NCBI GenBank assembly: GCA_008632985.1 | Contig: QPGO01000092.1 | Location: forward strand, 62,001 to 126,000 | Source: Psammoneis japonica | Lineage: Eukaryota | Reading direction: 5' to 3' | Length of the DNA stretch: 64,000 bases | In this document: piece after piece, positions 31,271-64,000 of the stretch | Layout of the letters: each line of letters begins with the position of its first letter | Position numbering within the stretch: position 1 is the first letter of the stretch | The notes under the pieces: model-generated | Told to the model about the DNA's origin: nothing | The model's input: only the letters and a program-made list of their open reading frames with translations | The model's database searches: none | Translations under genes and position numbers: made by a program

Positions 31271-31507
31271 GTCGGGCAAGCACACCTCCCTGTGTCTCGG
31301 AATTCTTTAGTGATTTGTTGTAGCGTCACACCAGTTACGACGATAAACTTGATCGCAAATAAAACAGTATTCACAGGACGGATGCGAGTAATTTCAAATT
31401 CAGTGTCAATCACAACATTCTAGCTGCAAATCTGAATGGACGAAACAGAGCTGTCTTTTAAAAATTATTAAACAATCCAACCACATCCCATCTGTGCTGT
31501 ATTATTC

Positions 31508-31576
31508 TCACGTCATGCTCATGTCGACATCGCTACTGGCAAAGGACAAGTTATCATCCGACGATGCGGCTCGTTG

Positions 31577-31607
<31 letters not shown>

Positions 31608-34009: not shown

Positions 34010-34729
34010 TCTATATATAATACGTTTAGCGCGGATGGGTAGCTAAGCGAACAATCAACAAAAACTCAAAACACAACAACGACGACGGCACGTGATTGTT
34101 TCGTCGCATCATTTTTTGTGGAGCGTGTGTGCGAAAATGCAGTGCGGTACAAGGGCTCACGTAGATTATGGTATTGGTTGTACGTAAAATGTCGATAAAC
34201 GTCGTCCATCGCAGAAATTAGATCTCCGTCATTGGAGGTAAATCAATGATATATATGGTATTTTTCTTTGAATATAAATATATTTATAACTTTTATGTTT
34301 TCATGCCAAACTATTTGTTTCTGTATACTCAACATATTTTATTAACACTCGTGTCTGTGTCGCGTGTGTGTCCTCGATGTTGCTTGTGACAACCAACACC
34401 AGTTGTGGCATGGACAACAACTAACCGAAGAAGCATGTCAGCCATCAACGCCAATCCCAACAAGTCTAAAGTGGCTCATGTTGCAGCAGAAGTGCCTTCA
34501 GAGGACCCACCCACAGTGGAGGTGTTCAAAGCAAACAGCAGCAACGTGGAACTTCTTTCTTTGAAGCACTCGGCAAAGGCAGGGACATGCAGAAACGTCT
34601 GCTGCTGTGCCCTGCACATGCCAGTTTGTTCAGAAAGACTGTGTGTTGAATGAAATGCACACATGTCTTGTGCAGCATTGGGATGAGGCAGCAACACTGG
34701 TCACATCTAACCTTCAAGCACAAAGATGT

Positions 34730-35047
34730 TGTCAGCCTGTCTGCCGTGCGATGGACAGACTGGTGGGTCATTTGGCCACAAATGAATTGACGTGCTCGCG
34801 CTTGCACATGTTTGTGCAGACTGAGGTCTGGTTGTCAGTGGGTGCAAGGATTCATTGATTTGGGCCCCTGATGTGTGCACTGGACAGACTGTGCACGGAT
34901 CATGATGACCAGACCTTTTAAGAGGGCCAAGCAGATCCCTCTGAGATCTGTCTCTCACTCTCTTCTGCCAGCACTTGTGTTGTCACAGTCCCAGTGCTTG
35001 GGGAGTCTTTCACACCTCTGTCATCATTGACCTCAGGCATTCTGTCA
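34730..35047 (+). repeat. 5' LTR
   Basis: Aligns with 41804-41981 but has an extra 129 bp between two tggacagactg repeats (34752, 34881). Confidence 0.85.
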
Positions 35048-38000
35048 GGTTGTGGCCTTGTGTTGTGCCACAGAACACTGCACTGTGCTTTCTGTTTTGA
35101 CTCATTTGTTTTGTGTGAACCGATCAAGCAAGCCTGATCATCTGCTCCTGAAACAGTTTTTTCCTCGGCTTTCCTGGCATTTTTCATGATTGCAGAAACA
35201 TAAAATGTTTTCACCATGTCCAACCATGGTGGTGCCCAACCCTGCAAAAACCATCCCCACAGCCATCACAGAGATCTGTTGTGAGTTTCAAGCACGTGCA
35301 ACTCCACCTCATCTCCATGCGGCCCTGAATGTGATTTACGCGGACTCCACACTCAATCTGGATCTGTTCTTTGAAGACTCAGACCATGCTTGACCCAAGA
35401 AAAATGTCATGGACTCACTCCGTGACTGTCTTGTCAATCAAGCGTTTCTTCCACCTTGTGCGACAGATCCCACAGACACACAGTCTGTCAAGACGATTGT
35501 GGACCAAGCTCCCTTTTGAGTTGCAGACCCCAGTGGGTCTCATGCAATTTGTTTGATGCCCAAAGGACTGTTTTCCATGATCAAGTTGACTCTTTAGAAC
35601 CACAGACATTCTTTGTTCATTGTCATGTTGACGCAGCATGTCCATGTGGACCCCAACATGTTGTGGAACTGCAGAGACTGGAATGAGTTCTCTCTGACTC
35701 CATGCAAGCCAAAGACTCAACCCACACCCCCATCTTTGACTTCTGCTGGAACCACAACTGTTGGTGTGAATGACCCAGTTGCAACACTCAATGAGTGCTC
35801 CATGAGCCAAGCTCTGCCTTCGACTGCAGCTGCAAAAACATCAGGAGGTGCTGCTTCCCATGTTGCATCAATGCATCCATTCAACCCCAATGCTTTGTCC
35901 AAGGATGTTTGTGCACACTGCAATTGCAAGGAATGCAGCAACACCACCTTGAAAAGTTCCCTCACCCCTTGTGCTCATGGGTGCCATCACTGTGTCAATG
36001 CATCTGAGTGCATCATCCTCAATGATGGCATGCTTTTTATCATGAGCTTGACTCCCGACCAGAAAATGTTGTCCAGGGAACCTTCCTGCCACATGCCATG
36101 ATGACTCTCCCACAGGAATCCGTGCTTGGCATCAAAATTTCTAACATCACTCCTTTGATTCTGGGTGCTGCGTCCATCCATTGTGGTGCTTCACTGAGGA
36201 CCATGGTGGTGAGAAAGGCTTCACAATCAGCAATGATGAGGACAATGACTCACCTCAATGCGTGTGTGTTCATTGCAAGGAAGCCCAGAGCTCTGTCCAC
36301 AAGATCTTGTCCAAAGCGGATGTGTTCCCCAAGAATGGCAAGCATCATTGGATTGTTGCTTCCTGCTGCTGCAATGGACACAAGGCCCTCAAGCAGATCT
36401 CATTTGAGATTCATCTTGCCTTCAAAAATGAAGCTGCAGGACCAGTGGACTCCTGCCCCATGCAAGGCAATCTCTCATTGACTGACTGCCACATTGTCTT
36501 TAAGGATTTTCTGCATTTGAATGCTTGTGTGTTTGATGTGGACTCCACATCAGATGACCCACGTGAGATGACTGTCTTTGTCAAGAGAACACCAAGCACT
36601 CCAAGTTTTTATCCTGTGCCACACATGATGAGTGCAAGTCTCCAGCTTTGCTCAAGAAATGTGTGGATGCCCAGATTGTTGAAACACTTTCAGACTTCCT
36701 TTGTCAACCCAACAGTCCAGCTGTCAGCAACTGCACCAACGTTTGCAACCCATGCTGCAGGTGAGATTGCAGTCCAGATGACACCTGCAACACTGCCACC
36801 AATGCAAATGCATTGCATGCTTTGGATGCACCTCTCATTGAAGCCCCTTCCAAGGGTGCACCTGAAGATGCCAGCACCCCAAACATTGCCATCATTCCCA
36901 GTTGTGATGCCATTGACACTCTGTGTGATGAGCTGGCTGCTCTTGATGCACCCCCTGCAGATGAAGACCGTGTCCTCCATCATGCACATTCTGCCTCCGT
37001 CTGCAAACTCAAGACTGCTCCACAGGAAGCTTTCAAAAAACCCTGCACAGTTTGTTCAGATGATCATTTGTTCCATGACTGTCCAGTGTTGAATGGTGCT
37101 GAACATCTCAAGAGTTTCCACATTTGCTTTTGCCAATTCTTGAAATGAGAGGCCGCTGTGCGTGCTGCAACAATCCAAGGTGCTCATGGTTTGTTGCCAT
37201 CTGCCATCTGCCAAGAAACCTGTGGAACTCTGGTGCTGAGCCTCCAAATTTTCAATCAGGTCATCACAGCTGGTTTTGGATCTCCAATGCAGCCCATTTT
37301 CTGCTGGCCAAGACAAGACAAATGTCAGTGGGGTGACTGCAAAAGAGGGGCTGCCAGTCTTGTCACCTGCCACTGAACCACCTCTTTCTCCAACAACCAA
37401 TCTGGGCAATGACAGCACTCCAGTGTCATCCATGCCTCCAGATGTTGCCAAGCTGCTGGATGACAATCCCACTCCAGATTCTTTGGATCAGTGGAGGGTT
37501 GATTCTGCTCTGAATTCTTTGGATCAGGGGAGGAACAACCAAGACTCATCTGATCAATGTGAGCTCATTGACCTTGCATGTGATGACATGGCTTTTGAAG
37601 ACAGTTTTGCAGCAATCAACTCTGTTCATGTCACCCTGACTGCCCCTGCTCATGCATTTGAATCTGTGCCAACGGAACTCCATTGTGAACCACTCCAGGT
37701 CAATGCTGTCAATTTTGCTCCAAATGAACAATGTGCTCAGTTGGGTGCTGGTGCTGACATTGCCTGCACTGGTGATCGTGACCTCCTGCATCAACACCAG
37801 GAATTCACTCCAGATGACTCATGTCCTCTTGCTGTCAACCCAGCTCTTGGTCATGAAGTGGTGCCAGTTGGCTTTGGTTGCCTTCACACACCGGCAGAAA
37901 ACTCCCAAGGTTTTGTTGAGATTTGCGTGCATCATCACCCACACACTCAATCTGCCCTGGTTGATGAGCAATTGTCACCGTGCAAGAATGGTGCCCATCG

Positions 38001-41000
38001 CATGGACCACAATGTCAATTGCATCCTCAAGTTTCACAATTTAGGTGCCTGCAAGTTTGTTGCATTACATCGGTTTTGCAAGAGTCAGGATGTTGTCATT
38101 CATGGTCAGTTGATCAACGGCAAGTGCCACACTCACCCACTTGCACCTCCAACATCTCATGATGAACTTGATGCATTGATTGAGCACTTGAAGGCCACTG
38201 ATCCATCTTTTTCAGAAGAGTGCGGCTGAAGTGGTCTTGTTGCACATGATTGCAACATGTTGTGGACACCAGAACGATGCCTTGCATGAGGAACGCAAGT
38301 TGATTCCACGAGTTTGCCAGGACATTCCCTTTGAAGAACATGCCAAGAAGAACACTCCTGTTCAATCCCTCAAGACTGACATGGAACGTCTTTTGTGACA
38401 CCAATGACTTGGTCATCCCAGCAATCACTGCTTGTGTCATGTGCATCATGAACATGTTGACGGTGTCCCCAAGTTTGCTCACAGCACATCTCCTCTAGAT
38501 GCTTGTCCTGCCTGCATCCAAGCAAAGCAGACCAAGGAACCCGCTGGTCTGAACACTGTGTTGACTGCCACTCAACCCCATCAAGGTCCAACAGCGGACT
38601 TCTCTTTCTCCAGATTGTGCTCAAAGAACAAGGCACATGCCGCTGATTGTGCTGGATTGAGTGGCAAGACTTGTTGGATCACTGTCTGTGATCACCACGC
38701 CAAACAAGTTTGTGGTGCTGCTCATGTCTCTGAGGCCACTCCTCCAATTGGATTTTCCACTTTCTGGAGGAGCCCTTGCCAAGATGTCTGGATGAATGTG
38801 TCTTTCTGGATCAAGGTGAAGATTTGCACAATGGTCCAGCAGCTCGGCAACTCTTTGAGGATGACTTTCACTGTGTGATTCATCCCATCATGGGAAAAGA
38901 TGCTTCAAACCAGAGTGGCCCAGTTGAGCAGAGTCATTTGACTGTTGCAAGTGCCACTTGGGTGATGCTGACAGGTGCAATCTGCTGATCAAGTTCTGGC
39001 CCTGTGCTTTTCAAGATTGTCCTCAAATCAAGAATGCTGTGCCATCCAAAGGACAAACTGCTGCTCCAATTGCCCTTGCCACTGGTCAGAGAGATGATTT
39101 TTTCTGCTTTCTGAACATTTGGTTGCCATGTCTGGGTCCATGTCTTGAATCACCGACTGGCAAAATTCAAGACTGACTCTTGCAAGGGAATTTTCTTGGA
39201 TTGTTCTTCTGGATGCCACAAAGAACATTTTTGTGGCACATGACCCTGTGATGCCCGGGTCAAGCTTGCCAAGCACATGCACTTCAACGAAGGAATGAAT
39301 GACTTGGATTGTGATTCCATCCCTCCCCATGTGGACCATTTGGGGTGCACCCAAGCTGGTGATCCTGTCCCTGCTGAGACCAAGGAAATGACTGCAGATG
39401 AGTTTCACTTCACTGGCAATCCTTTTGCCCAGACCATTGCATGGTCATGCACAATGAAAGGACCACATTTGGATTCCAACTTTGGGCTGTCCTTGACTGC
39501 AGATGAGTTGTGCCAATGTGTCTGTGTCTCGGATGTCTGACATCAGTTCTCCTTCTGCTCATCTCTTCTCTTTGTTGAAGGTGATGTGCAACAAGACATT
39601 GGGCACTTGTGTTGTCTTGATTGATGGTCACCCGGGAGACTCATTTTGAAATTGAATTTGTGCCAGAACAATGTCTTGACTCTAAAGCTTTGCAACATCC
39701 CCTGTGGTGGAACACAATGTTTTCTTGCCCACTCCCAACCCTGATGACAAAGATGTCCTGGAGATCATGAAGGCTGACACACATGCAACTGCTGTGATGC
39801 ATCATCTGGGTGTCAATTTTTTGGAAGTTGATGAGGTTTGGGAACCTCCCCCTTTTCACATTGATTGTGACAATGGCATCATGAATGTCAATGTGATGTC
39901 TTCTCATGCCATCATCCCGGAGGAGCAAGCTCAATGTGCCTTTGCTTGGCACCATCTCAAGAAGTCACCTGCATGGCCTGAGTGGCATGCAGGCAAGTTC
40001 AACAGGCAGCTGGACCAGTTTCATGAACTTGGCATGTTTGGTGCCCCCATCAAACAACCCAAGGATGCCTTTGTCCTCTGTCCTCATTGGCAACATGACC
40101 TCAAGCATGATGGCATGCAATGTTCCTGCCAGTGTTGTGATGGATCACTGTGTGTTGCATCTGTCCTCCACAGACTGCAGCACCAAACGCACTCCTCCTG
40201 TGTTGAGAAACCAATTCGGTGCATGTTTTTTGCACTTGCAGCTGCCATGAGCTGTTGAGTCCATGGCGGTGATGCCTGAGATGTGCACACACACTCTCCT
40301 GGGCCCTCTCATCCTGTCTGTGTTGCAAGTGATGAAGCATGCACAACATGGCACAAGTCTTGCTTTGGCGTCAATCTGCATTGGAGGACCATGGTTTTGC
40401 TGATGCGACATGCTCTTCAAGGACACCCAGAAGTTGGTGTGCTCTGGGAGAAACACATCAATGACATCCTTTTTGATGTGACCCTGGTGTTCCACAATGC
40501 AATGCATGACAAGTGCACTCATTCAGCTGCCTTTGATGGACACAAGATCTTGTTGCTCCAACAAGTTGACGATTTCTCTGTTGCTTGTCCTGAAGAATCC
40601 ATTGTGACCATGATCTGTGACAAGATTGGCAAGGCTCTCCAACTTCCTTCCAAAGACACCCCACACCTTTCAAGTGCCTGAGACTGATTGTCGAATTCAA
40701 TGGTGTTGACATTCACCAATGTGACAACTCTGTTGGCATTGCCATTCACGGGGCTGCATTGAATGGGCACGCATCTTGCATGGTTGGGCCAAGCCGACTG
40801 CTGATGAACCTGCATTGAACTGCATGGTGACTGTGATCCTGGTCAATTGTGTTCGTGATTTGCACACTGACATTGGCCCTGCTAAAGGGACACCAGAACA
40901 TGCCAAGCTTGAAGAGGCAGCTGGTTTTGGATGCTGCACTCTCCTTGGTGAATTGTTGTGTGCATGTGTTGTTTGCAGATTGGACATCAGACATGCTGTC

Positions 41001-41803
41001 ACTGCCTTGTTGTCCAAGTTCTCTTTGTGTCCTTCCATGGTGCACTGCAATGCATTGAAGGGTGTTTGCAAGTGCCTCCACCAGACCAAGCATTGGGAAC
41101 TGAGCTGCAGGAAACTCAAGCATGATCTGAGTTTGCCTCCATGTCCTTTTGAGCGCTTGACTCCTGACCCCACCCTGCCATCATTTCTCCCACTTCTGAG
41201 AGTGATTGTCAACTCCTTGCCTTCATGGATGCTGCCTGTGGAAATGATCTTTGCAACCATCAGTCCACAACAGGGCATGCTTGCATGTTGGCTGGTGCTG
41301 CCACATCTTTCCAATGCAAGACCCAATCAGTGACTGCTGTGGGTTCTGTGGAAGTGGAGTTTTGTGCCACCAGCACTGCTGCCAATCACACTCTGCCTTT
41401 TGTTGACAAAAAATTGGCAATCAAGATGACCAACCATTCTGTCCCCACCAAGAGTTTGCACCACATTGACACTCAGTTCTTTGCAATCCAAGATTGGAAG
41501 GAAGCGGGCAAGATTGTCACACCAAGACACATGCCTGGCATTGTCAACCCCAGTGATGACCTTGCCAAGGCTCCAGGATGGGCATTTCATGCCCGCTGTG
41601 CTCAATGCATGATGGGACACTGCCGTTGATTTTTCTTTTTTGTGGTGGCCTCCCTGCTGCAGATTGCTTCCTTGTTTGTCATGCATGTTGCGCATTGGGC
41701 TTGGACATTTTTTGTGTGCTGTGGTCTCTTCTCTCCTGCATCATCCCTGTTCTGTGGATTGATCTGCATTGTCACACACTGGACATTGCAGATCAGGGGA
41801 GGG

Positions 41804-41981
41804 TGTCAGTGTGTCTGTCATGCAATGGACAGATTGTGCGCAGATGATGACCAGACCTTTTCAGACAGCCAAGCAGATCTCTCTGAGATCCACCTCTTCT
41901 GCCAGTGCTTGTGTTGTCACAGTCCCAGTGCTTGGGGAGTCTTTCATGCCTCTGTCGTCATTGACCTTTGGCATTCTGTCA
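41804..41981 (+). repeat. 3' LTR
   Basis: Follows the PPT directly. Starts tgtcag and ends ctgtca. Confidence 0.9.
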
Positions 41982-42939
41982 AATGTGGGAAGGCAGCAGT
42001 GCTGCGCACACCAAAGTGGCAGCTTGAGAAGATCCCCCAGCAGTGGAAGAAGAAGGGCAGGCCAGCAACATCATTGCTGAACACCTTGCCACACATTTGG
42101 CTGTCATGCAGTAAAAAGATGACAGTCTCAAAAACAGGACTGGATGTCTTGCTTGCCTCAAGCAAAACATTGTGATGCTGGGTGACACCCAGCTCTGTTT
42201 TTTGCACATGTGGGGGTGGCAACCTCTTGGCACGGTCTCAGCTTCCTCAGAAGGCTCTGCTGGTTCTTTTTGAAGACATGTTGTCCAGCAACATTGACAT
42301 CCTGATGGCCAGCTCTCATCACCAGAGCTTGGTGCTGGTCAAAGAAAATGTGTTGGGGGTGTGCTTCAACTCAACAAAACAAAGACAACAAGACCAAACA
42401 TGAGGATTGCAGGCAGGCTGAGCTGAAGCACTTGGCATCATCCCATCTGTCTGAGCTCAAACACTGGAGCCCTCACAGTCATGACAGATCTCTGCATGAT
42501 GACAGGTGGCATTTTTTGATTGAAGAAAGACAAGCTGTGTCACAACACTTGGCATCATCTCATCTGAGCTCAAACACTGGAGCCCTTGCAGCTGTGATGA
42601 GCGGATCTGTGGGGTTGGTCCATTTCTGGACCATGAGAGCAAAAGCACTGCACAGTGTGGAAAGCATGCATGCACAGTGACTGCACAACAACCAGGCTTG
42701 GCTGGGGCACTCTGCTCTGACTTGCAACTAGCCTGATTTTCCAATGACCACCATTGCCCTGATTCTTTTGATGCTGGCTGCTCTGCAGAGCTTCAACAAA
42801 TGCTTGTGCATCTTTGTTGTCAAACAAGGAGCACATTTTTACATTCTTTTTCTGTTTGCCATTCAACACAACAAAGGGTCTTGCCTTTCAAAATGAGAGC
42901 ACAGCCCTGCTGTTTTGCTGTCAGCGCACCTGGTGCATG

Positions 42940-43230
42940 GTGGCACACTGTGGCCAGACTGTCTGTTGGGTGCAGGTCAGACACCACCTTTTTAGATGGC
43001 TGAGCAGTTTCCTCTGGGATCTGCCTCTCACTCTGTTTCTTGCAAGCAGCACACCACATGTCACTGCTGTTGCTGGTTTGTGTTGCAGGGAGATCCATGT
43101 CACATTTGTTGACTCAGCTGCCATTGCTCTGGTGGGTTGTGGCCCAGTGCTGCACTGCATGCTTTCTGTGTTGTGAGCCCATTTTGACTCATTTGGCTTG
43201 CAATTTTGTGATCTGACCAAGCCTGCCCCA
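42940..43230 (+). mobile_element. Second, truncated copia: LTR remnant, PBS and leader
   Basis: ggttgtggcccag at 43135-43147. Following sequence (ctgcactg..tgctttctg...ttttgactcattt...caagcctg) resembles the leader at 35070-35140. Upstream part is homologous to 61775-61880. Confidence 0.65.
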
Positions 43231-46200: not shown

Positions 46201-46929
46201 TTTCTCTAAGAGCAGAATCAAATGGGCCATTTTAGATTGTTCTCATCATGCCATGGTGAGCTGCTGATGAGCTGGTCTCCAGCTGTGCTTGTGCGAGTCT
46301 CTGGCAGCTGGTTGTTTGTGTGTTTGCAGCTTCACAAGGCTGAATTTGAGCCCTTTGGCCTGTTGCCACTGCCTGTTTTTTGTCAACACAGCATGTCAAA
46401 ATGTGCCTGTTTGTCAACATGTGGTTTGCCATTGTGCTTTCAAGGTGGGTTCAATTCTGTGCCTTGATGAAGTGCAGCACCTCCAGCCAGCTCTGCTGGC
46501 ACATGCAGGTGGCCATGGATGTGCAACTGAACAACAGGACAGACAGGCCTGTGCAGGCCCACTGTTGGCCTCTGCAATCAGCCCTTGTTCAATGTGCATC
46601 AGATTGGTTGCTGGCTGGCCTCCCATTTCCAGCACAATTGTGCATCAGCTGCAGAGACTTCAAGTTTTTGCATGCTGAATTTTGTGGGGCAGAGCTTTTC
46701 AAAATTTTTGATTTTTCTGAACACTGCAACATGCAACAACACTCAAACAACAAACATTGATGATGCTGTCAATGGGACAACATCAAAGCCACTTTGTCCC
46801 ACTTGTGAACTTGCAGTGCAATGGCACCTGACACCAAAGCTGCAGAGCCAACACAAAAAGGAAGGCAAAGAAGGCTTGCATTTGCAACTGGGGCAACAAA
46901 TGCAATGTGACACATTCCACATGCTTTTC

Positions 46930-49760: not shown

Positions 49761-50056
49761 AGTGACTGTCATTCACGAGGAGAACAAAGTCGCAACATGG
49801 GTTGGCTCACCTTGGTTTCCAAGCCTTGTCCTGTTGTTTGTTTATGTTCATGCGTGCGGCATTCGGTGCGGTGGCTTTTCTTTTCGAAATTTCATCATCA
49901 TCTGCAGCTGGCGGATTATTTTCCTGTGTCCGTTGGATCGTCGACAGGGCCAAGCCGGCTGTACATCATGCACTACAACAACCATGTGTCATCATTGCTG
50001 GTATTTACAGTAGTTATTTGAACAACAGAAACCAAGAGCGTGGAGTCGACTAGGGA

Positions 50057-51889: not shown

Positions 51890-54800
51890 ATTTTTTGCTT
51901 TGTAGTAGGTGTAAATTGTGAGACAGCATTCAATCGAGTACCGTATGATGGTTCAGAGAAAGAGATAAAACCGGTTTATGTAGCTTACCTGTACGGTAGG
52001 TTCCTCCCAAGCCGGGAGTGGGTTAGTCGCAAAGAGCAGGTTGGCATTTCGGAGCGTGAGAAATATGGAAATAGTGGAAGGTCGCGCAACAGAAAGGTGA
52101 AGGCCTCTCTCCTCTCTGTACATACCGGTAGTCTACCTTCACCTTTCTGTGAAGTGATAATTTGGTGTGAAGTGATCACGTAGAATTGTACGTATTTTTT
52201 CTAGTACTGAAATTCTGATCAGAACGCCACCAACTTATGTTCTGATTTTTATTAATTAATGTTTATAATCATTTGCATACAAATCGCCACAGTAAAGTTT
52301 GCCGTCGAGTTCCAGATGAGAGAAAAATCGGCATATGTCCGGTCACGTAGGTAGCTCCGAGTCTGAGGAGAAAACGCCATACGTTCAATTCGCACGTACG
52401 ATGGACAGACGTTTTACGACATTATGCTGCTGCGACAAAAACAAACCAACCATGATGCGGCAATGACCGATGTTTGATCTTGCCACCAAACCTTTTCCTG
52501 CCAAAAATGTCAACGCATGACATCCAAATTTTGCTGTGACAAGTGTGTCAATTGCAAGAGACGTGAGAGAAAACCCAAAAATGAACAACAAAAGCTCCTT
52601 CCTGCAGCTGTGCCGCTGCCCAGACTGCACATTTTCACAACTTGCATGGCAACAGCCAATGTTCTGTTTTTGCTGCCAAAATTGCTGATGATCAGCATGC
52701 TGTGCTGTTTCTCTTTGGCAAGTGTGCCAGTGAAAAGAGAGGCACAGCAGGAAAAAACCCAAGCAAGCAGGGCAAATGCAAAGAGGCCCTTTGTGCAGTT
52801 TTGCCACAAGACTCAGGCTCTCAGCTCTCACAGCTTGTGCACTTCAATTTAAGTTTGCACTTGACAGATTGAAGGCTGACTTTCAGCAATCAGGTGTCAG
52901 GTTCTGCTGTCACACTGTGCCTGTGAGCAGCAGTGCCAAGGTTGCTTGGCAATCCAGCAGCCAGCTCTCTGTGAAAAATGGCTGCAAAAGGAAAGGATCT
53001 GCCTGCTGCAACACAAGAGACAAGCAATCAAGAGTGCATTTTCCTGTGGTTTGGTGTCAAAGTAAATCTGCTTGTTTGTGGTGCTGTGCTGGCAAGACCA
53101 GCTGCGAGGCACAGCCCAGCCGCCACCAGCACAGCGGGTGCTGGCCTCCTCTCATGATGTTGGCATTGGGCCACATCATGCAGCTGTGCCGCTGCAGTCA
53201 AATGGCATTTCTGCCAGCTCTGCATGAAAAAATGATTGCAAAAGGAAAGGAGCCATCTGCGGTGCAAGAAACAAACAGCCGCCAAGCTCCCCACGGTGGT
53301 GGGCTGCTTGAAGTGCAGCAGCAGCTGCGCTCTGTGCTGGCCATCCAACAGAGATGAGTGGACCACAATGTTGGCTGCAAGATGAAAGGACTGTGTTGGT
53401 CACAACTGGTGCCAAACAAGTGCAGGAAATTTTCCTTTCATCCGAGAAAATTTGGGGGCTGCCAAGAGAGGAGCCCCCCATGACCCAAAACCCCACTCAG
53501 ACGTGTTCCAGCTGCACGTGAACCAAATCGTGCACAAAAACGACATTTGCACGATTTTTGTGCGGCCCCCAACTTGCGATCAAACTTTCACCACCAAAAG
53601 TGTGGATTCATCCAAGTGCAAATGTTTTGCAACACTGACAAGACTCGTGTGAGTGCTGCAGCGTCATTGTCATTGTGCCATCTGTGTTTTTCATTGTGTT
53701 AAAAGACTCGCAACACAACGGATGATTTTCGTCGAAAACATTGCCGTCACTTGGATGTCACCCAAATGTGTCTTTCTACGATGCCACTTGGTGGGTTTTC
53801 TACCTGCAAAGAAATCTCAGCACAAATCTGCTGACGTGCAATCAGCGTTGAGTCTGCTGAGGAAGTTTGTGATGTGTGTCCCATGAGGACTTGAGTGCCC
53901 CTCAAAAAACTGTTTGACTTTTTCTGCACCCACGCGGTTTCGCGTGATTGCCCCATTTAAACAAAATTTTCAATTGCGAAGAATGCCAACACAAACAACA
54001 AAACTTTTCCATTCAAACAAATGCAAACAAATGTGTGCTGTTTCGACCGTGACAGTTTTGTCCAATGGCATTGCAAGCCCTGGGACAGACTTTGGACCTG
54101 CAGTTTGGACAATTGCAAAGAGATCCGTGCCACACACACAACCGGATGACACATCTGAATGGACCAGGGCAACAGGGTGCAAAAAAGTGACGGACAGATG
54201 CATGCATGCTGGGGACGCATGCAGACACCATGGAAGAGTGACTTTTGGCAACAATTTCCAAAATCTTCTGTCCTGTTCAAAGTTTTGCATTGTGCATGGG
54301 TTTTGTCAGCAGGGCTGTGCACCCTGCTTCACAAGTGTCTAAACTGAATGTCTGTGGGTCAAAATGTGTCAAGCCGAGCCATTCTTCTGAAGCTGCTGAC
54401 AAAGAGGAAAGGCAACATTTTCCACTCAAACAACATGACACCAGGAAATGTGTGACCAAACATGTGAACAATGATGAAATGACAACCACACTTGAGTCAA
54501 TTAGAGAAAACACCGGGACAAAAAATTTTGTCCCGCGGGTGCAGAAAAAGTTAAATGTTCACACTCTAGAAGCCTGCAGAAGTCAATCTGTCCAAGCATT
54601 TCATGTGAAAATGCTGCATGCACTAAAAGATGCACAAATTGCACTCAAAATCGATTGTTGTTTTGTGCGTCACCTGGGACTGGAACACGCCCTCATGCTC
54701 ACATCTTGATTTCCCCCTTGTTGGCTTGTCAAATGAAGAAAACAAAGAGGCTTTCCTCTTTTGTTTTGTTGCACAATGTGCGCCAGATTTGCCACACCAA

Positions 54801-55851
54801 TTTGAGCTTTTGTGGGCTTGCTTGGAGCAGATCACACTTGAAGAGACCATGGAAGCACATCTTTTTGTCCTTGAGAAAGTGCCTCCCAATGGTGTCTGCC
54901 TCACTCATTGAGTGCACTGCACAAAAAGAGGTGTTTTGGCAGCCACAGGCTCTGCGCAAATCAACTTCTAGATGAAAGGTTCATGATGGTTGCAACCACG
55001 CATTGAATCACCAATTGTTTTTTCCTTTTCTTGTTTTCTTGCATTTCCTTGTCTAGGAAATTCAGTGCCAAACAAGGAATTCCCTGTGATCGAAAACCTG
55101 TGATGATGCGGTGATTGGCACATTGACAATGATTCCGTCTGTGGCGTCGCTGTCAAATTTGCACTGGAAAACCATGTGGGTTTCTACTTGTCACCATCAA
55201 AATGGAATTGTGTCATCATCAAATTCTACACAAACCCTGGTGCATTTCCTGCACAGTTTGTAAAGAGCTGCCTGCGCAACTGGACGATTGCCGAAACCAG
55301 GCCTGCGGGGAGCATTGACCACTTGTCTTTCTTTGTGGGTGTGGGTGTGTGCCATTGCATGCTGCATTGCCTGTGCGCACGCAGGGCCCCAGTGGCATTG
55401 TGGCAGCTGAGTGGCATGGCCACCGCACTGGTGACGTGGATGACCATTGTGTTTGATGTCTCATGCCATTTTTGGGGCTGCAGCGAAGGTGCACGGACAC
55501 TCTTTTTTTTCCAATTTATCACCACAACAGTGCATTGCACAAACTCACTTGTTGCTTGACATGTTTTCCCAAATGTGACTGTTTCGTGTGGAATTCACGA
55601 TAAATTGTCTTTGTTTGTAACTGAACACATTTTTCAACATGCCACGCCGGCAATCCCAATTTTTGAGAACTTTCGAGCTCTCCTGAAAAACCGTGCCACG
55701 CACCCGTCGCAGGGAATTTGTTGATTTTTTAGGATGTCCCCACGACCTCTCATGTCCTCAATGATCATTCTGCAAATCCAAAGAGTTCATCTGCACTAAA
55801 CAACCCATCCCGTTCCAAAATCTGAGGGACACACTTTCAAATTCAGACGAA

Positions 55852-55915
55852 CTGCCCGACTGCCCAACTGCCCGACCCCCCGACTGCCCGACTGCCCAAC
55901 TGCCCGACTGCCGGA
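55852..55915 (+). repeat. 8-bp minisatellite (ctgcccga/ctgcccaa), about 8 copies
   Basis: Directly visible. Two units carry CG->CA. Confidence 0.85.
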
Positions 55916-56282
55916 CCAACACGAAAAAGTCTGCAATCACCAACCACTGAGTGGTCAATGAAATCTTTCCCTCCGCCGTCTCATCTCTCATCTCTCTTCT
56001 GCTCAACTTCTCACTGAGAAAAAAAAAACGCAAAAACCATCATCCCGACTCGTCGACCATGGCGCTCCAGTTCTGAACCCATCGTCCACACTGTTGAGCT
56101 GTTGATGCACCACTCGATTTGCAAGAGTTGACATGACAAGAGACTGTGCGCAGCATGTGCGCAATGCATTGTCGCACCATTTTTTTCTGTCATTGTCGAC
56201 ATGCATCCCAGCAGTGATTTTGCATGAGGTTTGAATTTTGTGATGATCCGCGCGCAACAATCAGCTCGACACAAATTTCAAA

Positions 56283-59200
56283 AATGCCCACAACATGAAG
56301 TGGACTTGTCTTGCAATGGCAACCTGTGTTTGCCACCATGTGCATTCATCCTCAGTGCATTGACACTGTCACTGCTCCTTCACCGGCGGATGCATTCAAG
56401 CCTTTGGAAAAAGCCAAGGAGAAAGGTAGAGCAAAGGGAACAAAATGCCCACGTGTGGACAAGTCTTTGAAGTTTCACACTCTTGTGGACTTCCATGCAA
56501 ATGGCAATGGAGTTTCTTTGAGCTGTTGCTGCCAGAATGTCCGCCCCGAGCACAGCAGCTGTCACAACACCCTGAATCGGGCATGGGGAGAAAGTGGACT
56601 TCGTCGTCTTCATCAAGAAAATGCTTCAGTGGAGAAAGCACAAGAAGCCATTTGCAACCATTTTGGAGCAAAAGACAAGAAGGCAAAGGAGGCAACCACT
56701 GCCTTGCACAAGGGGAACAGAGCTCTTGCTGACAACAAAGAGCAGCACGTTGTTGAAGTTTGCTGCTGGTTGGGTCAGATGGGGCGCAGAGCATCAAAGG
56801 ATGCCATTCTTGAGATTGTGAATGACTTGGCCAATGAGCACATTGGTGAGCATGAAAAACCATCTGTGTCTGATTGTTTTGTGCACTCCATGCTCCAACG
56901 CCATCCAAAGCTAGCAAAACTAGCTCAAGCTTCAAGTTTGGACCCAATTCGTGCTGAGCAGGGGACAAAAGAGGTTCGGGACGCATGTTTTGCAAAGTTG
57001 CAGTCTTTTGTGAAGCATCTCCATGCTGCAGGTAAAATTGATGTTGATTGCATTGAGAAGCTTGAGGCTTTTAGAAAATGCAACATGGATGAAGTTGCAA
57101 TGGATGCTGTGAAATGCTGCAAGAAAGTGCCAGTCTTCAAGGAGGTCATGAAGAAGTTGCACATTTTTCAGAGGACTCCCGAGGGCAATGGCAAGATGAG
57201 CCATCATCTTGCCATGTGTGTCACTTCTAGAGCAGATGGCAAGTGAAGGGGCGCTGCTTTGTTTGTTGTTGCTGCCTTGCTCTGGACAATTGTTGAGTGC
57301 ACTTGCCTTGTGCCCGTCCGCCTCCACAGGCATCAACGCAATTCCGCGCCAAGAAATTGAAGGTGCCCCGCCGCCGTTCCTTGCACATGCCTCCAAATCC
57401 AAAAGAAGACCAATGACTCCAACCGCGTTGATGCTCCAGAAGACGAGGCTGCTGTTGGTGAAATGCATCTTGACGGCCTCGCCCCAGCAAATCCCAACCC
57501 CAGCGCCAAGTTCAGCGACAACCCACGTGGCTTTGATGTCCGGACAACCACAAACGGAAGCACATGGAAAAAGATGCAATGCTCGACTTTGCCATTCATC
57601 ACCGCAAGAACCTTCCCAAGGGTCAAGGAAAAACAAGTTGCGTGACAGACTGGACGCAACCAAACGATCGAGGTGTCAACAAATGCCTGCATGCCAAGAT
57701 TGAGGAAGAGGCAAAGAGGGCCAGGCACGAGAGCGGTCTTGCAAAAGGAGTGCAATTGACAAACCAAGTTTTTCTTGCTGCTTGGAAGGCTTGCCTTGAA
57801 GCTGAGAAGGCCGAGCTCTTGTCCAAAGGAAGCAATGTCTCTGCACAAGCACCTGGAAGGAAACCGGACTCAAGCCAATCAACCCCGATTGCGTGGCGTG
57901 GACGGAAGTGCTGGAGACAATGGGGGCCGCACACGACCTCGCCCCAGAATCGCAAAGAGAAAAGGAGGAACAAGCACAAGAGCAACAAAAACAAGAGTGG
58001 GAAATTGAGCCTCTCCCACCTGACAACCGAGTTGCCATTGTTGAGAGATCAAGAAATGTTCTCCGCCAGGGCTGCAACGACGACGACAACCTGCTTCATG
58101 ACTTGGATGTTGCGGTTCCAGTGGCAAAATCAATGTTGGCAAAATGGAGAGAGGACACAGAGTGCAAGAGTGAGAAACCAGAGCCAACAAGCAAACAAGA
58201 AGAGCTGGCTGTGCAACTTGCACAATGTTGCTTGCCTGATGCGGCGTCACTGCCTCGTGCAGTGGAAAAGACGAAAGAGGAGCACATGTGAGATTGGACT
58301 GCAATGGTGCTGCGTTTGGTGTGACCTTTCATTGATGCCATTGAAGTGCAATTTTTTGATCCCACTGGCGCAACCTTTGATGGAGTTGTTGCACTCCAAA
58401 GCAATCCAAATTGGAAGCTGGTGCTGGAAGATGGGGCTGAGCACATTGTGACCGAGAGCGATTTGTTGGATGCTTCTAAGCACCGCGTCAACCCCAAAAA
58501 ATTTCTGAAAGATCTTGCTGCAACCAGAAGAGAGCATCTGCACAAAAGGCAACAGAGACAGAGAGAGCAGACAGCATCAATTGAAGCTGCAAAACAGAAG
58601 GCTTCTGAACAGTGCAGTGAAATGTTCAAAGTCTGGTGTCAACAACAGCAAGGGAAAACAATTGGTGAGAGCTTTTCTTTTCAGGATTTTTTGCAATTGA
58701 AAGGGATGATTGAGAAACCACATGTTGCGATGATCGACAGCTTCAAAGCAGAGGTGAGCAGCAGTGGTGCAAATGCCATCAGCATCGCAGTGCGTGCAAC
58801 AATGTTGAATGTGCTTGCCGGTTTCAAGCGAAAGGATGTGGTTGCCGGCACAGCAGGTGCTTCCAAACAACTGCCCAAAAAGAAGAGACGTGGAGCCATT
58901 GTCAAGACAGCATGAGGTGAGAATGCAATTGTTGCCATGCACCGCACCAAGACAAGGATGATCAAGGTGGGCAAGGCAGAGCAAACAAAACTGAAGGCTG
59001 ACATCACCAAGCAATCAAAAGCGCTCAACGAGTTTGATGCACTTCGATCCAGCACGCCTCAGCACGGTGAGTGCGAAGACATTGAAGGGAGATGAGCTGA
59101 AGATCTTGATTTGGCTGGTTTGGACAAATGCCGGTTTGTCAGGGAAGAGCATTGAAGCAAAGAAGAAGGAGCTTAAAGAGCGGAACATTGCAAAAGAATG

Positions 59201-59390
59201 TCTCGACTCTGTTTGCATTCAGAAAAGGCGCGATCTTGATGACCTCAAATCAAAGCTTCACGACTCTTCGGCTGACAGTGATTCGGACGATGAAGACCAA
59301 GAAGAGTTGGCTCAAATGTACAATCATCTGCATCATCTGGACACTTTGTGCAAATTTTCATGAACGGTTGTGATGAGAACCAAATTTTGT
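56283..59390 (+). pseudogene. Degenerate pogo/Fot1-like (DDE_1) transposase relic
   Basis: CENP-B-like segment (FVHSMLQRHPKL), ASSLDPIRA, NMDE (~57082), TTNGS and TQPND.GVN (~57655). The middle catalytic Asp region appears deleted. Probable intron after ADGK. Confidence 0.65.
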
Positions 59391-61769
59391 CAACTTTTTG
59401 TGAGGAGAAATGTGCCAAGTCCATTTGGATGCGCTTCTTTTTCTGACGTTGTCTCATGTTCCCACATCGGCATTTTCGATGCGAGCACACGATGACAACA
59501 ACAAAGCATGCTTGCATGTGTCATGGCCACAAGCTGTGAGGCATGCCGTCACATTTTGATTGAACTCGGGGATCTTGATTTCGAAAGCAGCCATTTGTTT
59601 GACATCGTGATTTTTCATCGCCCACAAATCGGGATTTCAACTGAGTCGAGTTGATGTTGGACGTGCTTCAAAGCAGTGCATTTGATGAAACAATTTGGGG
59701 CTCTGGAATTATGGCATTTATGCCATGGAGACTCAAAACAGCAAATGGGTTGACAATCAAGTAGTGATCAGGCTTGCCAACATTTCCAAAAATGTGACAA
59801 CAAAAATTGCATCACTCAACAACCAACAACCCTTCAAGAGAAAGAAACAAGAAAAGTGACTCCTCTTTGCACTTGAACCAAAAGAGACAAGAATGCACAA
59901 CAAACATTTGAGAAGGACAAGAAGCTCTTGAATGCATGAAACAAGAAGAGAGTCAATGAATTGCTCTTGTTTTGAACGTCTTGCCCTGTTCTGTCCATGT
60001 GTGATGGTGGTTGGTTGAAAGGTTGGTTGTGGTTTTTTTGTGTGACTTGCAGCTTGAGGCATGTTGGTGCATGAACACATGGCCCATGTGCGGTGTGTCA
60101 CCTTTGGAATGTGCCACTTGCGAGGCTTGAGTGGACAGCTCTCTGTGCTGAGCTTTGTCTGCCAAATGCTGAGTCTAAGTGCAGATGCTGCCCCATCCCA
60201 CCCAACCATGCATTGACAAAACAGTTCTTGCAAAAATTGTTGCCTGTTTCCTTCTTCCTCTGAAGAGCAGCTCTCTTGGTGACAGTGCTGCCCACATGCC
60301 AGACTGTGCTCAAAAATGCTTTCCAACCTGCCAGCCAAGACACCCAACTCGGGGTTGTGTGGGCTCGAATCTCTCTCAAGACAAGCCAACATTTCTGGCA
60401 CTGATGGCAATGCTGAGCCCTCCTGCCTGTTTGACTTCCCAGGGGTGTGCCCAGACCTCCTGCATGCTGGCTCAACCACAAGAGTTGCTGTTTTTGTTGG
60501 CTTTGTCAGCAGGATGTGCCAAGGCTGCTCTGGCCATGTGTGCCTGGCTGATGCCACAATGCAAGGAGACAGCTGCAACAGCACTTTCTGTTGTCAGCAA
60601 AGAGTGTGAGCTGGCTGGACTGCCCAACCCCACACTTCACAGCTCCTTGGCAGTCACTCCAAATCAAGCGCCAACTTGGGGTCAACTGCACCTGACTGGC
60701 TGCAATGCAAAGACAGCTGTGGCATCACTTTGTGACAACAAAGAGAGTGTGAGCTGGCTCCCAACCCCACACTTCACAGCCCCTCAGCACTGGCTCCCAA
60801 TCAAATGCCAACTTGATGCCAATGGCCATGAAGCCATTGTTGCAATCCCTGTGCCTGGCCCATCACACAGCTTTGCACAGGGTCAACATGTGTGGCCTTT
60901 GCAAGATGGGCCCCTGGCTGACTGCTGACTGCTGACTTCTCAGCCATGGCTTGCACAACAAGCCGCCACAACACAGAGCATTTTGGGGCAAGTGCAGCAC
61001 AGCTTGAACAAGCAAACCATGCTGAGATCACCCAGAGTCAGCGCTGCTGTCCTGGGGCTCCATTCAAAGCTGAGCTGGGCTGCTGCTTGGCTCCTTGGTG
61101 CACAGCACATGCTTGGCATCACATTGTTGCCAAGCAGCCACATGGCATGTGCGCCCACCATTTGTGCACCTGCAACAGCAACTCCTGGCCACAAAGAAGC
61201 CAACAAAAAGTCAAACCTGCTTTTTTGGTTGAAGAGTGAAGAAACTGTGAGCAAAGTTGGGTTCAAGAATTGCTGGCAATGCCAAGTGGGCAACCAAAGA
61301 GAGGTGCCAAAAATGGCTGTTCTCGCTCATTTCTCAAGAGGAGCTTGTGCTCATGATGCAGGGTCTGAAGCAAGCACCAGTCAAGATGACAGTTTCTTTC
61401 TCTGCCCCACCCAAAACAAAGCCTTTGAGTCAATGTGGTGCTCTTTCAACAATTGACGCACACTGGGAGGAGCAGCAGCTGGAGCCACGGCAGCTGGCCT
61501 GGCAGGGCTTGGCTGACAACCAAGCTGGGCTGCTCAGCTTGGTGGCACACACTCAGCGTCACATTGTCTCCCTCTCCTGCAGCTGCAGTGTGCCCCACTC
61601 TTTGCACCTGCAGCAACCACCCTGGACCAAAAAAAGCCAGTGCAACTCTGGCCTTGGTTGTGTGTTCAATGGTCGAATCTCCCCTCCTTTTTCCCTTTTC
61701 CTTCAGCCGGCCACAAACATGAAAAAAATGCCAGAACAACGCAAAAATTCTGCGATTGGCAAATTTGAG

Positions 61770-61970
61770 TGATGGGTCAGACTGCACCACCTTTTTAGAC
61801 AGAGCTGGACAGTTTTCTCTGAGATCTGCTTCTCACTCTGTTTCTTGCCAGCACACCACATGTTGCTGCTGCTGCTGCTGCATCAGAGCGTGCATCACAG
61901 TGATCCAGACCTGCTTTCTTGTGGCTGGTGATTTTTTTCCTGAAAAATTCCACGGTTTCAGACCTTGACA
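61770..61970 (+). mobile_element. LTR remnant related to 42975-43075
   Basis: caccacctttttaga...cagttt.ctctg.gatctgc.tctcactctgtttcttgc...cagcacaccacatgt is shared. Ends in tgaca. Confidence 0.55.
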
Positions 61971-62499
61971 GCTGCGTGCATGGCGGTCATTTGTCAACCA
62001 CAACAGACAATGGCATTGTTGCCATGAAGCCCAAACTGATCCTGTGAGAACAACAACATCACCATGAAACTGCCACACAGTTTTTCACCATGCTGGCAGC
62101 TCCCAAAAGTCTGCCCTTTTGAAATGCAGCTTCTGCACAATTTTTGCACTGGTGCATCTCATGAGCCATGGGCTTTTTTACATGATTTTGTGTGTGGAAT
62201 TTGTGCAATGGAAATGACGCCAAACATCTCATGAGCCAGCAGCTTTTTTGGGATTTGTTGTGCACACAATGCACCAGATTCTTGCACGCAGATGTAAAGG
62301 CAGAAGAGACAAACAAACATGCTGGGAGCTTCTGTGAGATTCTACGCAATTGGGCAGACTTTTGCAGTGAGCAGACTTTTGGGAGCTGCCAGCATGAGAT
62401 CGCCTGCCCTTGTTTCCCGCAAAACTCATTGGTCAACAGCAATGCTGGTCATCAGAACGTTTGCGAACATGATTCAAATTTAACTTCATTTTGACAATG

Positions 62500-63860
62500 C
62501 ATTGTGCTTGATGTTTGTCAATGAACACCACCTTGTTTGCTTTGCCACTTTGCAAAGCTCATCAATGAACACCACTTCACTTCTTTGCCGTTGGCCTTTC
62601 TGCATTGTTGACGATGTGCTCTGCTCCCTTGCCAGATCAGTGTGGCATCTCGACTGTCCTTGCTTTCTTCTCCATCTTCTTTGTCATCATTCTGCCTTTC
62701 CTTTTCCATGTTTTCTTCCTCACTGTCCTTGTCTTTGCCAGAAAGCTCTGTCATTGCTTGTGTTTGCATCTCCAACTCTGCTGGTTTTCTCTTTGTTTTT
62801 GCTCCCTTGCCCTTTCCATCACTCAGCCTCTTTTTTCCTTTGCTGCACCATGTGTTGAACTGCTCACCTGGGTGACTTGCATGCCCTGTCTTCCTTCACC
62901 TCTGCAAGCAGGTCATTGAATCTTTTGGTTCCTTCATCCTTCCAAGAGTCATGCTGTCATGCTGAGTCTGTGCATGGGGGCACCGGCTTCACATCCTTCT
63001 CCTCTTCTTCATTTCCTTCTTGAATGTTCCCATCCTTCATGGCCTTGTGCTCCCAAATCTTCCAGCAGTTTTCCATCTTCAACAGTCCCAGAGCCTTGTT
63101 GCTTGCCAAAGTCAGCTCTGAAGCCTTGGCGTTTCCTGACTCCACCATCTTTCTCCACACTGCAGTGCTCTGTGTGAACTTTAGAACCTTGTCACAGAAC
63201 CATGTGCATGCTTCCTTGTTCACCCGCTTTTCACTCACAATGGTCTCCACTGTCTCTTCTTCCCAAGTTGCCAGGAATGGTTCTTCAGTTAATGCAGCTT
63301 GCTTCTTGTTCTTCTTTTTGTTCTGGTGTTTTCTTGCAGCTTTCTTTTGTTGCTTGCAGATTCCCTTGGCTTCCTGTTCTGTCAATGCCGCTGCAGTGAA
63401 TGAGCATTTCGACAGCTGCGCTGCAGCCAACACCTCCTTTTCCATGATCCCCGCAGCACTCACCTCTTGTTGCACTCTTCGTCATTGTCCAGGTGACAGT
63501 GTTCCTCTTTGTGTTTGTTGCATTGAGGGTGCACTTTTTCACCCAGTCTTCCCACAATCCTGCACAGTCTCACTTGCTGAACCTGCTCTTGGCTGTGTTT
63601 TTCCATGTCAGCCATGACACCTTGCCTCCACTCACCAGGTCTGCCTTGACAAGGAATTTTGCCCTTGGGAACAGTTCTTTCCAAGCCACCTCCTCAACCT
63701 CTCTCTTCAGAGATTGGTGATCTCCAGCAGCTCCCACTCTCAACAATGCTGCTGCTGACCTTGGGCTGTTTGGCTGCTCTTCAGCAGCCCCCTCCTTCCT
63801 TTTCTTTTTCTTTGGCATGACACAAATGTTGCAGACTGCAATCTGTTGTCAAAATGTGTG
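62500..63860 (-). pseudogene. Hypermutated ORF relic, probably a TE accessory gene
   Basis: Protein-like fragments (CTWFCDKVLKF...W...SNKALGLLKMENCWKIW...PPCT) with Cys at likely Tyr positions, interrupted by TGA stops and frameshifts. Confidence 0.4.
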
Positions 63861-64000
63861 GCAGCAATCATGCACAGCTCATTCTGATGTGGATGATTGC
63901 CGTTGCAATGTGAGGAGATGCTCTTGCCAATGCTTGTGATCCTTCAACTGCTGCCACAAACAATGAAAACAACCAAAATTGGGGTTGTGCATGTTTTCCA

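Follow-up and report, generated by a model that had tools for sequence, protein, structure and literature searches.

Probable TpA-specific hypermutation of dead mobile DNA in the diatom Psammoneis japonica

The DNA analysed here (the window) is a stretch of 64,000 nucleotides from the diatom Psammoneis japonica (GenBank assembly GCA_008632985.1, contig QPGO01000092.1, positions 62,001 to 126,000 of the forward strand), in which host genes adjoin mobile elements, among them a full-length Copia retrotransposon, that have lost almost every TpA step. Composition was profiled across the window as observed/expected (O/E) dinucleotide ratios in 1-kb windows, and then as TA counts per 200 bp. TA O/E per kilobase ranged from 0.26 to 1.01 in 1-34000, from 0.00 to 0.10 in 35001-50000 and from 0.02 to 0.13 in 53001-64000, and TG and CA O/E climbed, within the depleted part, to 1.3-2.15. 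On the left, the border falls at ∼34400, where 19 TA in 34200-34399 give way to 2 in 34400-34599; depletion ends at ∼49840, with TA recovering at 49843, and resumes after 52423. All borders are sharper than 200 bp. They delimit block A (34400-49840, 15441 bp) and block B (52425-64000, 11576 bp, continuing past the window end). A preliminary description of this DNA had drawn one TA-poor span from 34345 to 64000; the two blocks stand, but not their continuity, since the island 49841-52424 is normal in composition (TA O/E 0.52, CG O/E 0.94) and carries a cytochrome P450 gene on the minus strand (open reading frame (ORF) 50057-51952; Pfam p450, E 7e-18).

Block A contains 40 TA, where base composition would predict 1032 and the rate seen in genes 570 (binomial P 5e-190). 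Its O/E ratios are 0.04 for TpA, 0.14 for CpG, 1.92 for TG and 1.77 for CA, from observed (expected) counts of 124 (899) CG, 1865 (970) TG and 1695 (956) CA. Block B, at TpA O/E 0.05, contains 41 TA compared with 773 and 427 expected, respectively (binomial P 8e-131), together with 251 (675) CG, 1270 (697) TG and 1200 (748) CA. These counts bear out the earlier claim of transposon blocks nearly free of TpA, high in TG and CA and short of CpG beside normal genes. The TA-free stretch of 1.4 kb that had been placed at ∼36612-38041 proved exact, no TA occurring in 36611-38041, and longer TA-free runs span 60176-61796 (1620 bp) and 46233-47754 (1521 bp). When genic dinucleotide frequencies were scaled to block size, block A was found to have lost 530 TA and 755 CG (1285 in all) and gained 773 TG and 539 CA (1312), and block B to have lost 386 TA and 408 CG (794) and gained 451 TG and 334 CA (785). 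The self-complementary pyrimidine-purine steps TA and CG have drained into TG and CA almost one for one, and GC content stays at 0.483. GpC is raised and ApT slightly lowered in the blocks, as expected for TAC to TGC and GTA to GCA changes.

We read the blocks as dead mobile DNA: a full-length Copia element, long terminal repeat (LTR) fragments, a probable remnant of a pogo-like DNA transposon, and unrecognisable sequence. The Copia element lies on the plus strand between a 5′ LTR (34874-35050) and a 3′ LTR (41819-41984), which blastn paired at 84.9% identity over 172 bp (91.5% in purine/pyrimidine coding). Its degenerate, CoDi-like gag-integrase-reverse transcriptase (RT)-RNase H coding region (36085-41626, plus strand), recognised by tblastn, translation and motifs, is broken over three frames; Copia polyproteins of Nitzschia inconspicua (P0062-P0064, 1638-2242 amino acids) align with 36085-41620 by tblastn in pieces in three frames. 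The six recoded Copia motifs of the preliminary description (DAACGND, HQSTTGH, HGGDA, CPHWQH, LQQVDDF and MGHC) were all recovered, on the plus strand at 40079-41612. The RT/RNase H frame (647 codons) is interrupted by 15 in-frame stops, 14 of them TGA, the outcome expected of CGA to TGA changes at CpG. Among 130 ORFs of 34346-49594, the sole relevant Pfam match was a sub-threshold gag_pre-integrs at 38408-38875, the others being weak or spurious. Adaptive avoidance of TA by an active element was considered and rejected: the element has lost conserved tyrosines, and its frame is disrupted by the 15 stops and by frameshifts.

Elsewhere in the blocks mobile DNA was harder to recognise. Self-comparison revealed an LTR-like fragment related to the Copia LTR at 42930-43085 (plus strand), which opens the unannotatable part of block A, and a second one of the same LTR family at 61702-61899 (plus strand). 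ORF 56299-57246 (plus strand) resembles the N-terminal half of a HTH_Tnp_Tc5/DDE_1 (pogo-type) transposase: all its Atlas feature matches, at 0.90-0.92, carry HTH_Tnp_Tc5, and some DDE_1. It has no Pfam match and one database homologue (P0215, 39% over 176 amino acids), against which two of five aligned tyrosines read His and Cys; we treat the resemblance as a lead rather than a family assignment. No signal came from Pfam, Copia tblastn or Atlas in 41985-49840 (an Atlas search with ORF 43533-44093 returned nothing, best score 0.77), and no family was recognised when 52500-64000 was scanned with Pfam in six frames. Used as tblastn queries, 153 Copia homologues detected no second pol remnant outside 35900-41700, giving five matches at E 0.05-0.1. 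Self-comparison after purine/pyrimidine recoding recovered the LTR family alone, long matches of 73-75% being at noise level, and only two small arrays turned up when the blocks were scanned for tandem repeats. Mobile content is thus established for the Copia element and LTR fragments and indicated by a lead for the pogo-like ORF, and 43086-49840 is without a recognised element. Depth in the public sequencing run X1 was 100-1600 over Copia parts but 64-98 over 42007-46675, near the single-copy value of 55-63. The ∼470 bp preceding the 5′ LTR (34400-34873) are also TA-poor (3 TA in 34400-34799) at a run depth of 55, that of single-copy DNA; they are either an old unrecognisable relic or a spread of the process beyond the element.

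The genes to the left served as controls. An APC6/Cdc16-like tetratricopeptide repeat (TPR) protein is encoded on the minus strand at 31508-34042 (Pfam ANAPC3/TPR) in DNA of normal composition. Its nearest relatives are diatoms, the best named ones being Seminavis robusta (45-46%) and Cylindrotheca fusiformis (39%), which anchors the host among the diatoms. At 32318 in this gene the window reads TA (GTTAA), and runs X1 and X2 read CA (GTCAA), a single instance (n = 1). The normal half also contains pentatricopeptide repeat (PPR) ORFs (14370-16469, minus strand), a SWEET/MtN3 sugar transporter (17138-18220, plus strand) and a protein carrying five helicase-associated (HA) domains (21899-23458, plus strand), besides a direct duplication of 1.1 kb (141-1239/1675-2764, 81% identity). 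Two small islands in this half have the composition of the blocks. The first, 30301-31200, sits between two ORFs at single-copy run depth, with 9 TA compared with 63 expected and 188 TG plus CA compared with 112. The second, 3801-4400, has 4 TA compared with 34 expected and lies within ORF 3202-4587, which also holds a tandem array of 75-bp period (3402-3906).

The substitutions behind this composition were read from the Copia coding region. Relative to P0062, none of 51 aligned tyrosines survives, 19 reading His, 15 Cys and 8 Phe, and of 100 arginines 16 have become His, 15 Cys, 13 Lys and 10 Gln, and 10 remain Arg. Other residues were better retained (Phe 40/73, His 34/60, Cys 17/22). Over the aligned residues the window has 0 Tyr, 102 His and 92 Cys, and P0062 has 51, 60 and 22, respectively. 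Changes that need A-to-G after another base were few: Asn-to-Ser (after A) at 4/38 and Asp-to-Gly (after G) at 3/96. The same pattern was obtained with the 153 Copia homologues, collected by exhaustive HMMER search, when columns were scored where most of them agree. Eight majority-Tyr columns read His in four cases (CAT/CAC), Cys in two (TGT/TGC) and Phe in two; of 15 majority-Arg columns five read Cys, four Gln, three His and one each Trp, Ser and Arg; and Trp (7/7), Asp (12/13), Gly (15/17) and Met (3/3) were retained. Since Tyr-to-His (T-to-C on the sense strand) is about as frequent as Tyr-to-Cys (A-to-G on the sense strand), both strands have been hit. The sense strand of the element (34876-41981) contains 900 TG and 766 CA.

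Less mutated relatives were found in metagenomes. A scan with an alignment of intact RT homologues (A3; consensus with RPHWQY, YGGDA and LRQVDDF), whose seed pattern tolerated Arg-to-His and not Arg-to-Cys, yielded 80 related Copia loci; the mutated ORF of the window itself, used as a query on metagenomes, gave no relative, and at the nucleotide level the window Copia matches none of the 80. TA O/E forms a graded series over these loci, from 0.04 (L080) and 0.11 (L060) through 0.20-0.37 (ten further loci) up to about 0.8 (maximum 0.81). TG+CA O/E rises as TA falls, reaching ∼1.6 where TA is lowest and lying at 1.2-1.3 in most other loci, and CG O/E is ∼0.5-0.8 regardless of the TA value. Sixty loci could be aligned over the 1.4 kb of L080, giving a majority consensus with 59 TA and 50 CG sites. 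Of the consensus TA sites L080 retains 0/59, with 31 now TG, 26 CA and 2 other. Counts retained elsewhere were 3 in L060, 11 in L074, 12 in L034, 15 each in L049 and L039, 21 in L079, 24 in L029, 25 in L027, 30 in L025 and 32 in L028, and 40-53 in most others.

The spectrum of L080 is confined to these sites. Compared with 57/59 TA converted, A-to-G outside TpA occurred at 13/249 positions and T-to-C at 16/238, a strong enrichment of A-to-G in the TpA context. C-to-T outside CpG stood at 15/311 and G-to-A at 5/183, transversions at 36/1193, and the reverse change, TG or CA to TA, at 1/193. At the protein level, TA-normal copies retain 10-12 of 14 tyrosines of protein P0071, and L080 and L060 retain none, with Arg retention unchanged. 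Intact relatives are TA-normal and do not share the TA-free state of the mutated copies. The process is TpA-specific and one-directional, and has hit individual copies to different degrees. Several copies have more TG than CA on the sense strand (37:16 in L060, 26:18 in L074, 26:18 in L034, 25:15 in L049 and 25:13 in L039), an excess that could be a transcription-linked strand bias or a by-product of a TAY preference in Tyr codons.

The timing of mutation can be read from the LTR pair of the window Copia. Of 166 positions 147 are identical and 19 differ, including three double differences of TG versus CA and three sites with CG versus CA. LTRs are identical at insertion, so the same ancestral step has been resolved independently in each, indicating that mutation followed integration. 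The alternative is that retrotransposon RNA or cDNA is edited during replication by an ADAR-like or APOBEC-like activity, copies being born mutated. It draws on the fact that retrotransposons are the targets best characterised both in the window and in the metagenomes, that graded copies could mirror different numbers of edited replication cycles, and that TG exceeds CA on the sense strand of several copies (37:16, 26:18, 25:13). Both products are nonetheless plentiful on one strand (31 TG and 26 CA in L080; Tyr-to-His about equal to Tyr-to-Cys), and the TG-versus-CA differences between LTRs fall at the same sites. Depletion also runs continuously over LTRs, inter-element DNA, the probable DNA transposon and the ∼470-bp flank of single-copy depth at 34400-34873. 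Furthermore, the available part of a recent preprint on the rhizarian alga Bigelowiella natans (Mettrop et al., bioRxiv 10.64898/2026.01.13.699255) reports comparable mutations that appeared in integrated sequence of DNA viruses while the alga grew asexually. We therefore regard editing before integration as very unlikely. RNA hyperediting of the ADAR type was rejected separately: sense T-to-C is as common as A-to-G, a 5′ T is strictly required, and non-retroelement DNA is affected.

A sequence without TA might also be a product of sequencing. We sampled words of 33001-43000 in run X1, where 93% were present, and compared contigs built from the run with 30001-50000. Six contigs over TA-free sequence, 988-2426 nt long and at a word depth of 59-70 (55-61 in flanking genes), reproduced it with 0-1 differences each. 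Those at 35042-36069, 36043-37030 and 44340-46721 showed none, those at 37310-38691 and 41927-44352 one each, and that at 38898-40114 one difference and two gaps. The TA-free sequence is real DNA and not a read or assembly artefact. An artefact would suppose that modified bases in repeats (5-methylcytosine (5mC), 5-hydroxymethyluracil (5hmU) or similar) were miscalled as false TG and CA; strand-specific miscalls at palindromic TA and CG would indeed mix both in a consensus, and X1 is the one run with the sequence, of unrecorded library type, that may be the assembly's own data. Exact k-mer contigs of 1-2.4 kb at depth 59-70 are unlike, however, what noisy long reads deliver, the graded signature recurs in 80 independently assembled metagenome loci, and the available text of the B. 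natans preprint (bioRxiv 10.64898/2026.01.13.699255) reports the signature from Illumina mutation-accumulation data. We consider an artefact extremely improbable. The variants in which a modified base is read differently by strand, or as G whichever strand is read, were rejected, TG and CA being interleaved on one strand inside exact-match contigs.

In and beside the blocks, X1 contigs of single-copy depth differ from the window only at CpG-type sites: the window has CG and X1 has TG at 34545 and 34571, CG and CA at 37927, and TG and CG at 39252. These differences look like ongoing CpG decay between haplotypes or strains. Other copies of the Copia family in X1 differ from this one at 236 transition and 65 transversion places; among 33 of the 302 listed differences that were inspected, 7 are TG or CA here and CG in other copies.

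CpG loss to TpG and CpA is strong in block A (CG O/E 0.14) and in 60000-64000 (0.16), and diatom transposons carry DNMT5a-dependent CG methylation according to the available part of PMC9998398. The CpG half of the signal, with the recoding of Arg to Cys, His, Gln or Trp, is explained by deamination of 5mC, on the presumption that the sites were methylated. TpA loss is separable from this decay and independent of it, because 52425-59999 combines TA O/E 0.06 with CG O/E 0.49, and L080, with 0/59 TA, keeps 38/50 consensus CG, as TA-normal copies do (36-40/50). Deamination of 5mCpG cannot remove TpA, and here TpA is lost without extra loss of CpG.

These comparisons also bear on what had been proposed as the mutator. 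The preliminary description envisaged a second targeted mutator on silenced repeats, coupled to 5mC and possibly a TadA/ADAT-like DNA adenine deaminase or an error-prone polymerase. Its core holds: TpA becomes TpG or CpA in transposon DNA, adjacent genes are spared, and changes outside TpA are not raised. Obligatory coupling to 5mC was not upheld, as sub-block 52425-59999 and the TA-free metagenome copies, which retain CpG like TA-normal ones, both show. Pol-eta-type patch repair at WA motifs, set off when deamination of 5mC leaves T:G mismatches, has in its favour the strong CpG decay that accompanies TpA loss in block A and in 60000-64000. It should also consume ApA, which is undepleted (AA O/E 1.20-1.35 in the blocks vs 1.15 in genes), and it is at odds with the rarity of Asn-to-Ser (4/38) and Asp-to-Gly (3/96) and with TpA loss that is complete where CpG decay is mild (52425-59999) or at background (L080). 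The probability we give to this polymerase is close to nil.

The bases flanking TpA influenced its conversion. Among surviving TAs in the blocks 52/81 are YTAR, compared with 226/1270 in genes, and ATAN and NTAT are nearly gone. In 15 mutated metagenome copies the converted fraction was 0.78 for RTAY, 0.69 for RTAR, 0.60 for YTAY and 0.41 for YTAR, and the TG:CA ratio of products depended on the flanks (TTAC 38:3, ATAC 41:17, GTAA 1:8). The most enriched tetranucleotides of the blocks are CTGC, GTGC and GCAC, at 2.5-2.9 times their genic frequency, although mass balance at the tetranucleotide level is confounded, flanking bases mutating too. Most of these data would fit an agent that attacks a single strand at a time, in the order of preference 5′-TAC > TAT > TAR; YTAR may then resist because both strands present TAR.

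The natural target adenine of TadA/ADAT enzymes is, as far as is known, always preceded by U. On single-stranded DNA, editors derived from TadA show an intrinsic YA motif in which YAY > YAR and YAC is preferred (available part of PMC12528748). In TadA and ADAT2-ADAT3 a target A that follows U or T, and in the TadA-derived editors the order YAC, YAY > YAR, parallel the order TAC > TAT > TAR suggested by the sequence context here. We infer that an enzyme, rather than a repair bias, is responsible, and tentatively suggest from the context data that it could be a polynucleotide adenine deaminase of the TadA/ADAT kind, an identification to which we give somewhat less than even weight. The natural enzymes edit tRNA, whereas the target here is transposon DNA and the enzyme a candidate only; natural editing of DNA by ADAT is cited in the B. 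natans preprint (available text of bioRxiv 10.64898/2026.01.13.699255) for the amphioxus and trypanosome enzymes only.

The target base might instead be thymine, a TET/JBP-type dioxygenase oxidising the T of TpA steps within silenced DNA to 5hmU or 5-formyluracil (5fU), which mispairs with G and yields T-to-C. Attack on T in 5′-RTA mirrors attack on A in 5′-TAY, so composition and context data fit both equally. In dinoflagellates 5hmU favours TpA, and 5fU mispairs with G. The 57/59 transitional conversions with 2 other are cleaner, we would expect, than an oxidative lesion, which also yields transversions. The YAY > YAR hierarchy has its parallel in TadA enzymes, and we know of no dioxygenase with one; no dioxygenase domain was found among the host gene ORFs in the normal half of the window. 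Thymine chemistry appears unlikely to us, though we take it more seriously than any of the other alternatives.

We thus think it probable, with good confidence, that the blocks record a post-integration, strand-symmetric, TpA-specific transition hypermutation of mobile DNA. Two kinds of transition would have altered this DNA. Methylated CpG in integrated mobile DNA would decay to TpG or CpA, and a separate, region-targeted process would turn TpA into TpG or CpA (A:T to G:C on either strand), reaching ∼90-97% completion and halting within 200 bp of host genes. A deaminase could act on exposed single-stranded DNA of silenced chromatin, converting A to inosine, which is read as G. Such a process would create no TAA or TAG and would kill proteins by missense, above all through Tyr to His or Cys.

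Several observations weigh against this interpretation or its details. Run X1 is possibly the assembly's own sample, with its library type unrecorded, and so checks base calls and is not an independent strain. No TA-bearing copy in this genome was seen among the 33 of 302 listed X1 differences that were inspected. The metagenome copies share ancestry, so that their pooled counts are not independent. Contrary to a simple TAY model, CTAA gives TG 24 : CA 8, and the choice between His and Cys at tyrosine codons follows the preceding base in the right direction without a clear difference (15:6 vs 9:10, Fisher P 0.20). The context asymmetry itself appears to fit A in 5′-TAY and T in 5′-RTA on the other strand equally well. 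As the preliminary description had observed of genes for such an enzyme, no deaminase domain was found by Pfam among the window's ORFs, in a search that covered the window alone. Finally, the events in B. natans were seen de novo in the available part of the preprint, whereas the present case is known from end-state sequence alone.

Judged by its likeness to B. natans, the process appears to be of a kind already described, very recently, in one rhizarian alga, and the diatom case would extend it. According to the available portions of that preprint (Mettrop et al., bioRxiv 10.64898/2026.01.13.699255), 231/302 mutations of a mutation-accumulation experiment fell in two integrated viral regions; 230 of the 231 were A-to-G or T-to-C, all at TpA, at a rate of ∼6e-7 per site per generation, elevated ∼1000-fold and in some lines only. 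The same portions list 324 low-TpA coding sequences with an over-representation of reverse transcriptase and DDE endonuclease domains, found with cut-offs of Rho TpA ≤ 0.43 together with Rho CpA+TpG ≥ 1.52, and name an ADAT2 homologue as candidate enzyme. These cut-offs are far exceeded here (Rho TpA 0.04-0.05, CpA+TpG ∼1.7-1.85). As far as that text goes, the two cases share conversion of TpA to TpG/CpA alone, the presence of both products, foreign or mobile DNA as target, and a direction opposed to the usual GC-to-AT bias. Activity there was episodic across lines, which is compatible, though indirectly, with the graded copies found here (0 to 53/59 TA retained).

The cases also differ. The host is a stramenopile diatom instead of a rhizarian, and the targets are transposons instead of the viral inserts reported in the available text for B. 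natans. Saturation is greater, with TA O/E 0.04 here compared with 0.45 in its giant-virus insert and no depletion in its virophage insert, and strong CpG decay is overlaid here, unlike the case described there. The extended context (YTAR refractory, TAC favoured) is likewise not met in the abstract, Introduction, Results and Discussion of the preprint. New here are the saturation, the graded natural copy series, the independence from CpG decay and the extended motif. The preliminary description had held TpA loss to be unexplained by anything established and had called for a check of the literature. Neither 5mCpG decay nor repeat-induced point mutation (RIP) explains it, as had been said, but the 2026 preprint has meanwhile shown the same TpA-only signature in B. 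natans; full-text literature searches found no report of TpA hypermutation in diatoms or other stramenopiles, and TpA goes unmentioned in the available parts of PMC12344493 and PMC12994199.

Fungal RIP converts CpA to TpA, enriches TA and creates TAA and TAG stops. The process described here resembles it as a genome defence made of context-specific transitions in mobile DNA, regional, saturating and in sharp contrast with genes. Its direction is opposite: TA is erased (O/E 0.04-0.05), TG and CA stand at 1.6-1.9, GC content is kept, and TG or CA became TA at 1/193 sites in L080. RIP inactivates through TAA and TAG stops, whereas the process here cannot and acts by missense. The near-single-copy depth of part of block A (64-98 over 42007-46675, compared with 100-1600 over Copia parts) leaves RIP-like sensing of repeats not established as the trigger, and heavy mutation could hide old copies. 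The available part of PMC9998398 describes diatom DNMT4 enzymes as RID-like and their function as undetermined. With AID/APOBEC enzymes the process shares a deaminase logic and the mutation of foreign nucleic acid in a short context. Those enzymes act on C, usually strand-asymmetrically and before integration; here A (or T) is changed, strand-symmetrically and in place.

The present case would extend to diatoms a principle of genome defence known from one preprint and one rhizarian alga. As primary producers diatoms rank among the most important, and their genomes and epigenomes are well studied. The extended motif constrains the enzyme, and an enzyme found in nature that edits DNA adenines at TpA would be of interest to mutation biology and genome engineering alike; to our knowledge, the adenine base editors now in use all go back to a tRNA deaminase evolved in the laboratory. 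A full-length Copia element without a significant Pfam match to reverse transcriptase or integrase means that the repeat content of such genomes is probably underestimated. It is conceivable, and we offer it as a conjecture, that diatoms, together with Bigelowiella and perhaps much of the stramenopile-alveolate-rhizarian (SAR) group, possess a RIP-like defence running in reverse. In it a DNA adenine deaminase, probably an offshoot of TadA/ADAT2, would be aimed at silenced or foreign chromatin and turn 5′-TA(Y) into TG on either strand until every TpA, tyrosine codon, TAA and TAG is gone. If this is true, homology-based annotation would miss a large share of diatom repeat DNA, and a DNA adenine editor specific for TA would exist in nature, still to be isolated.

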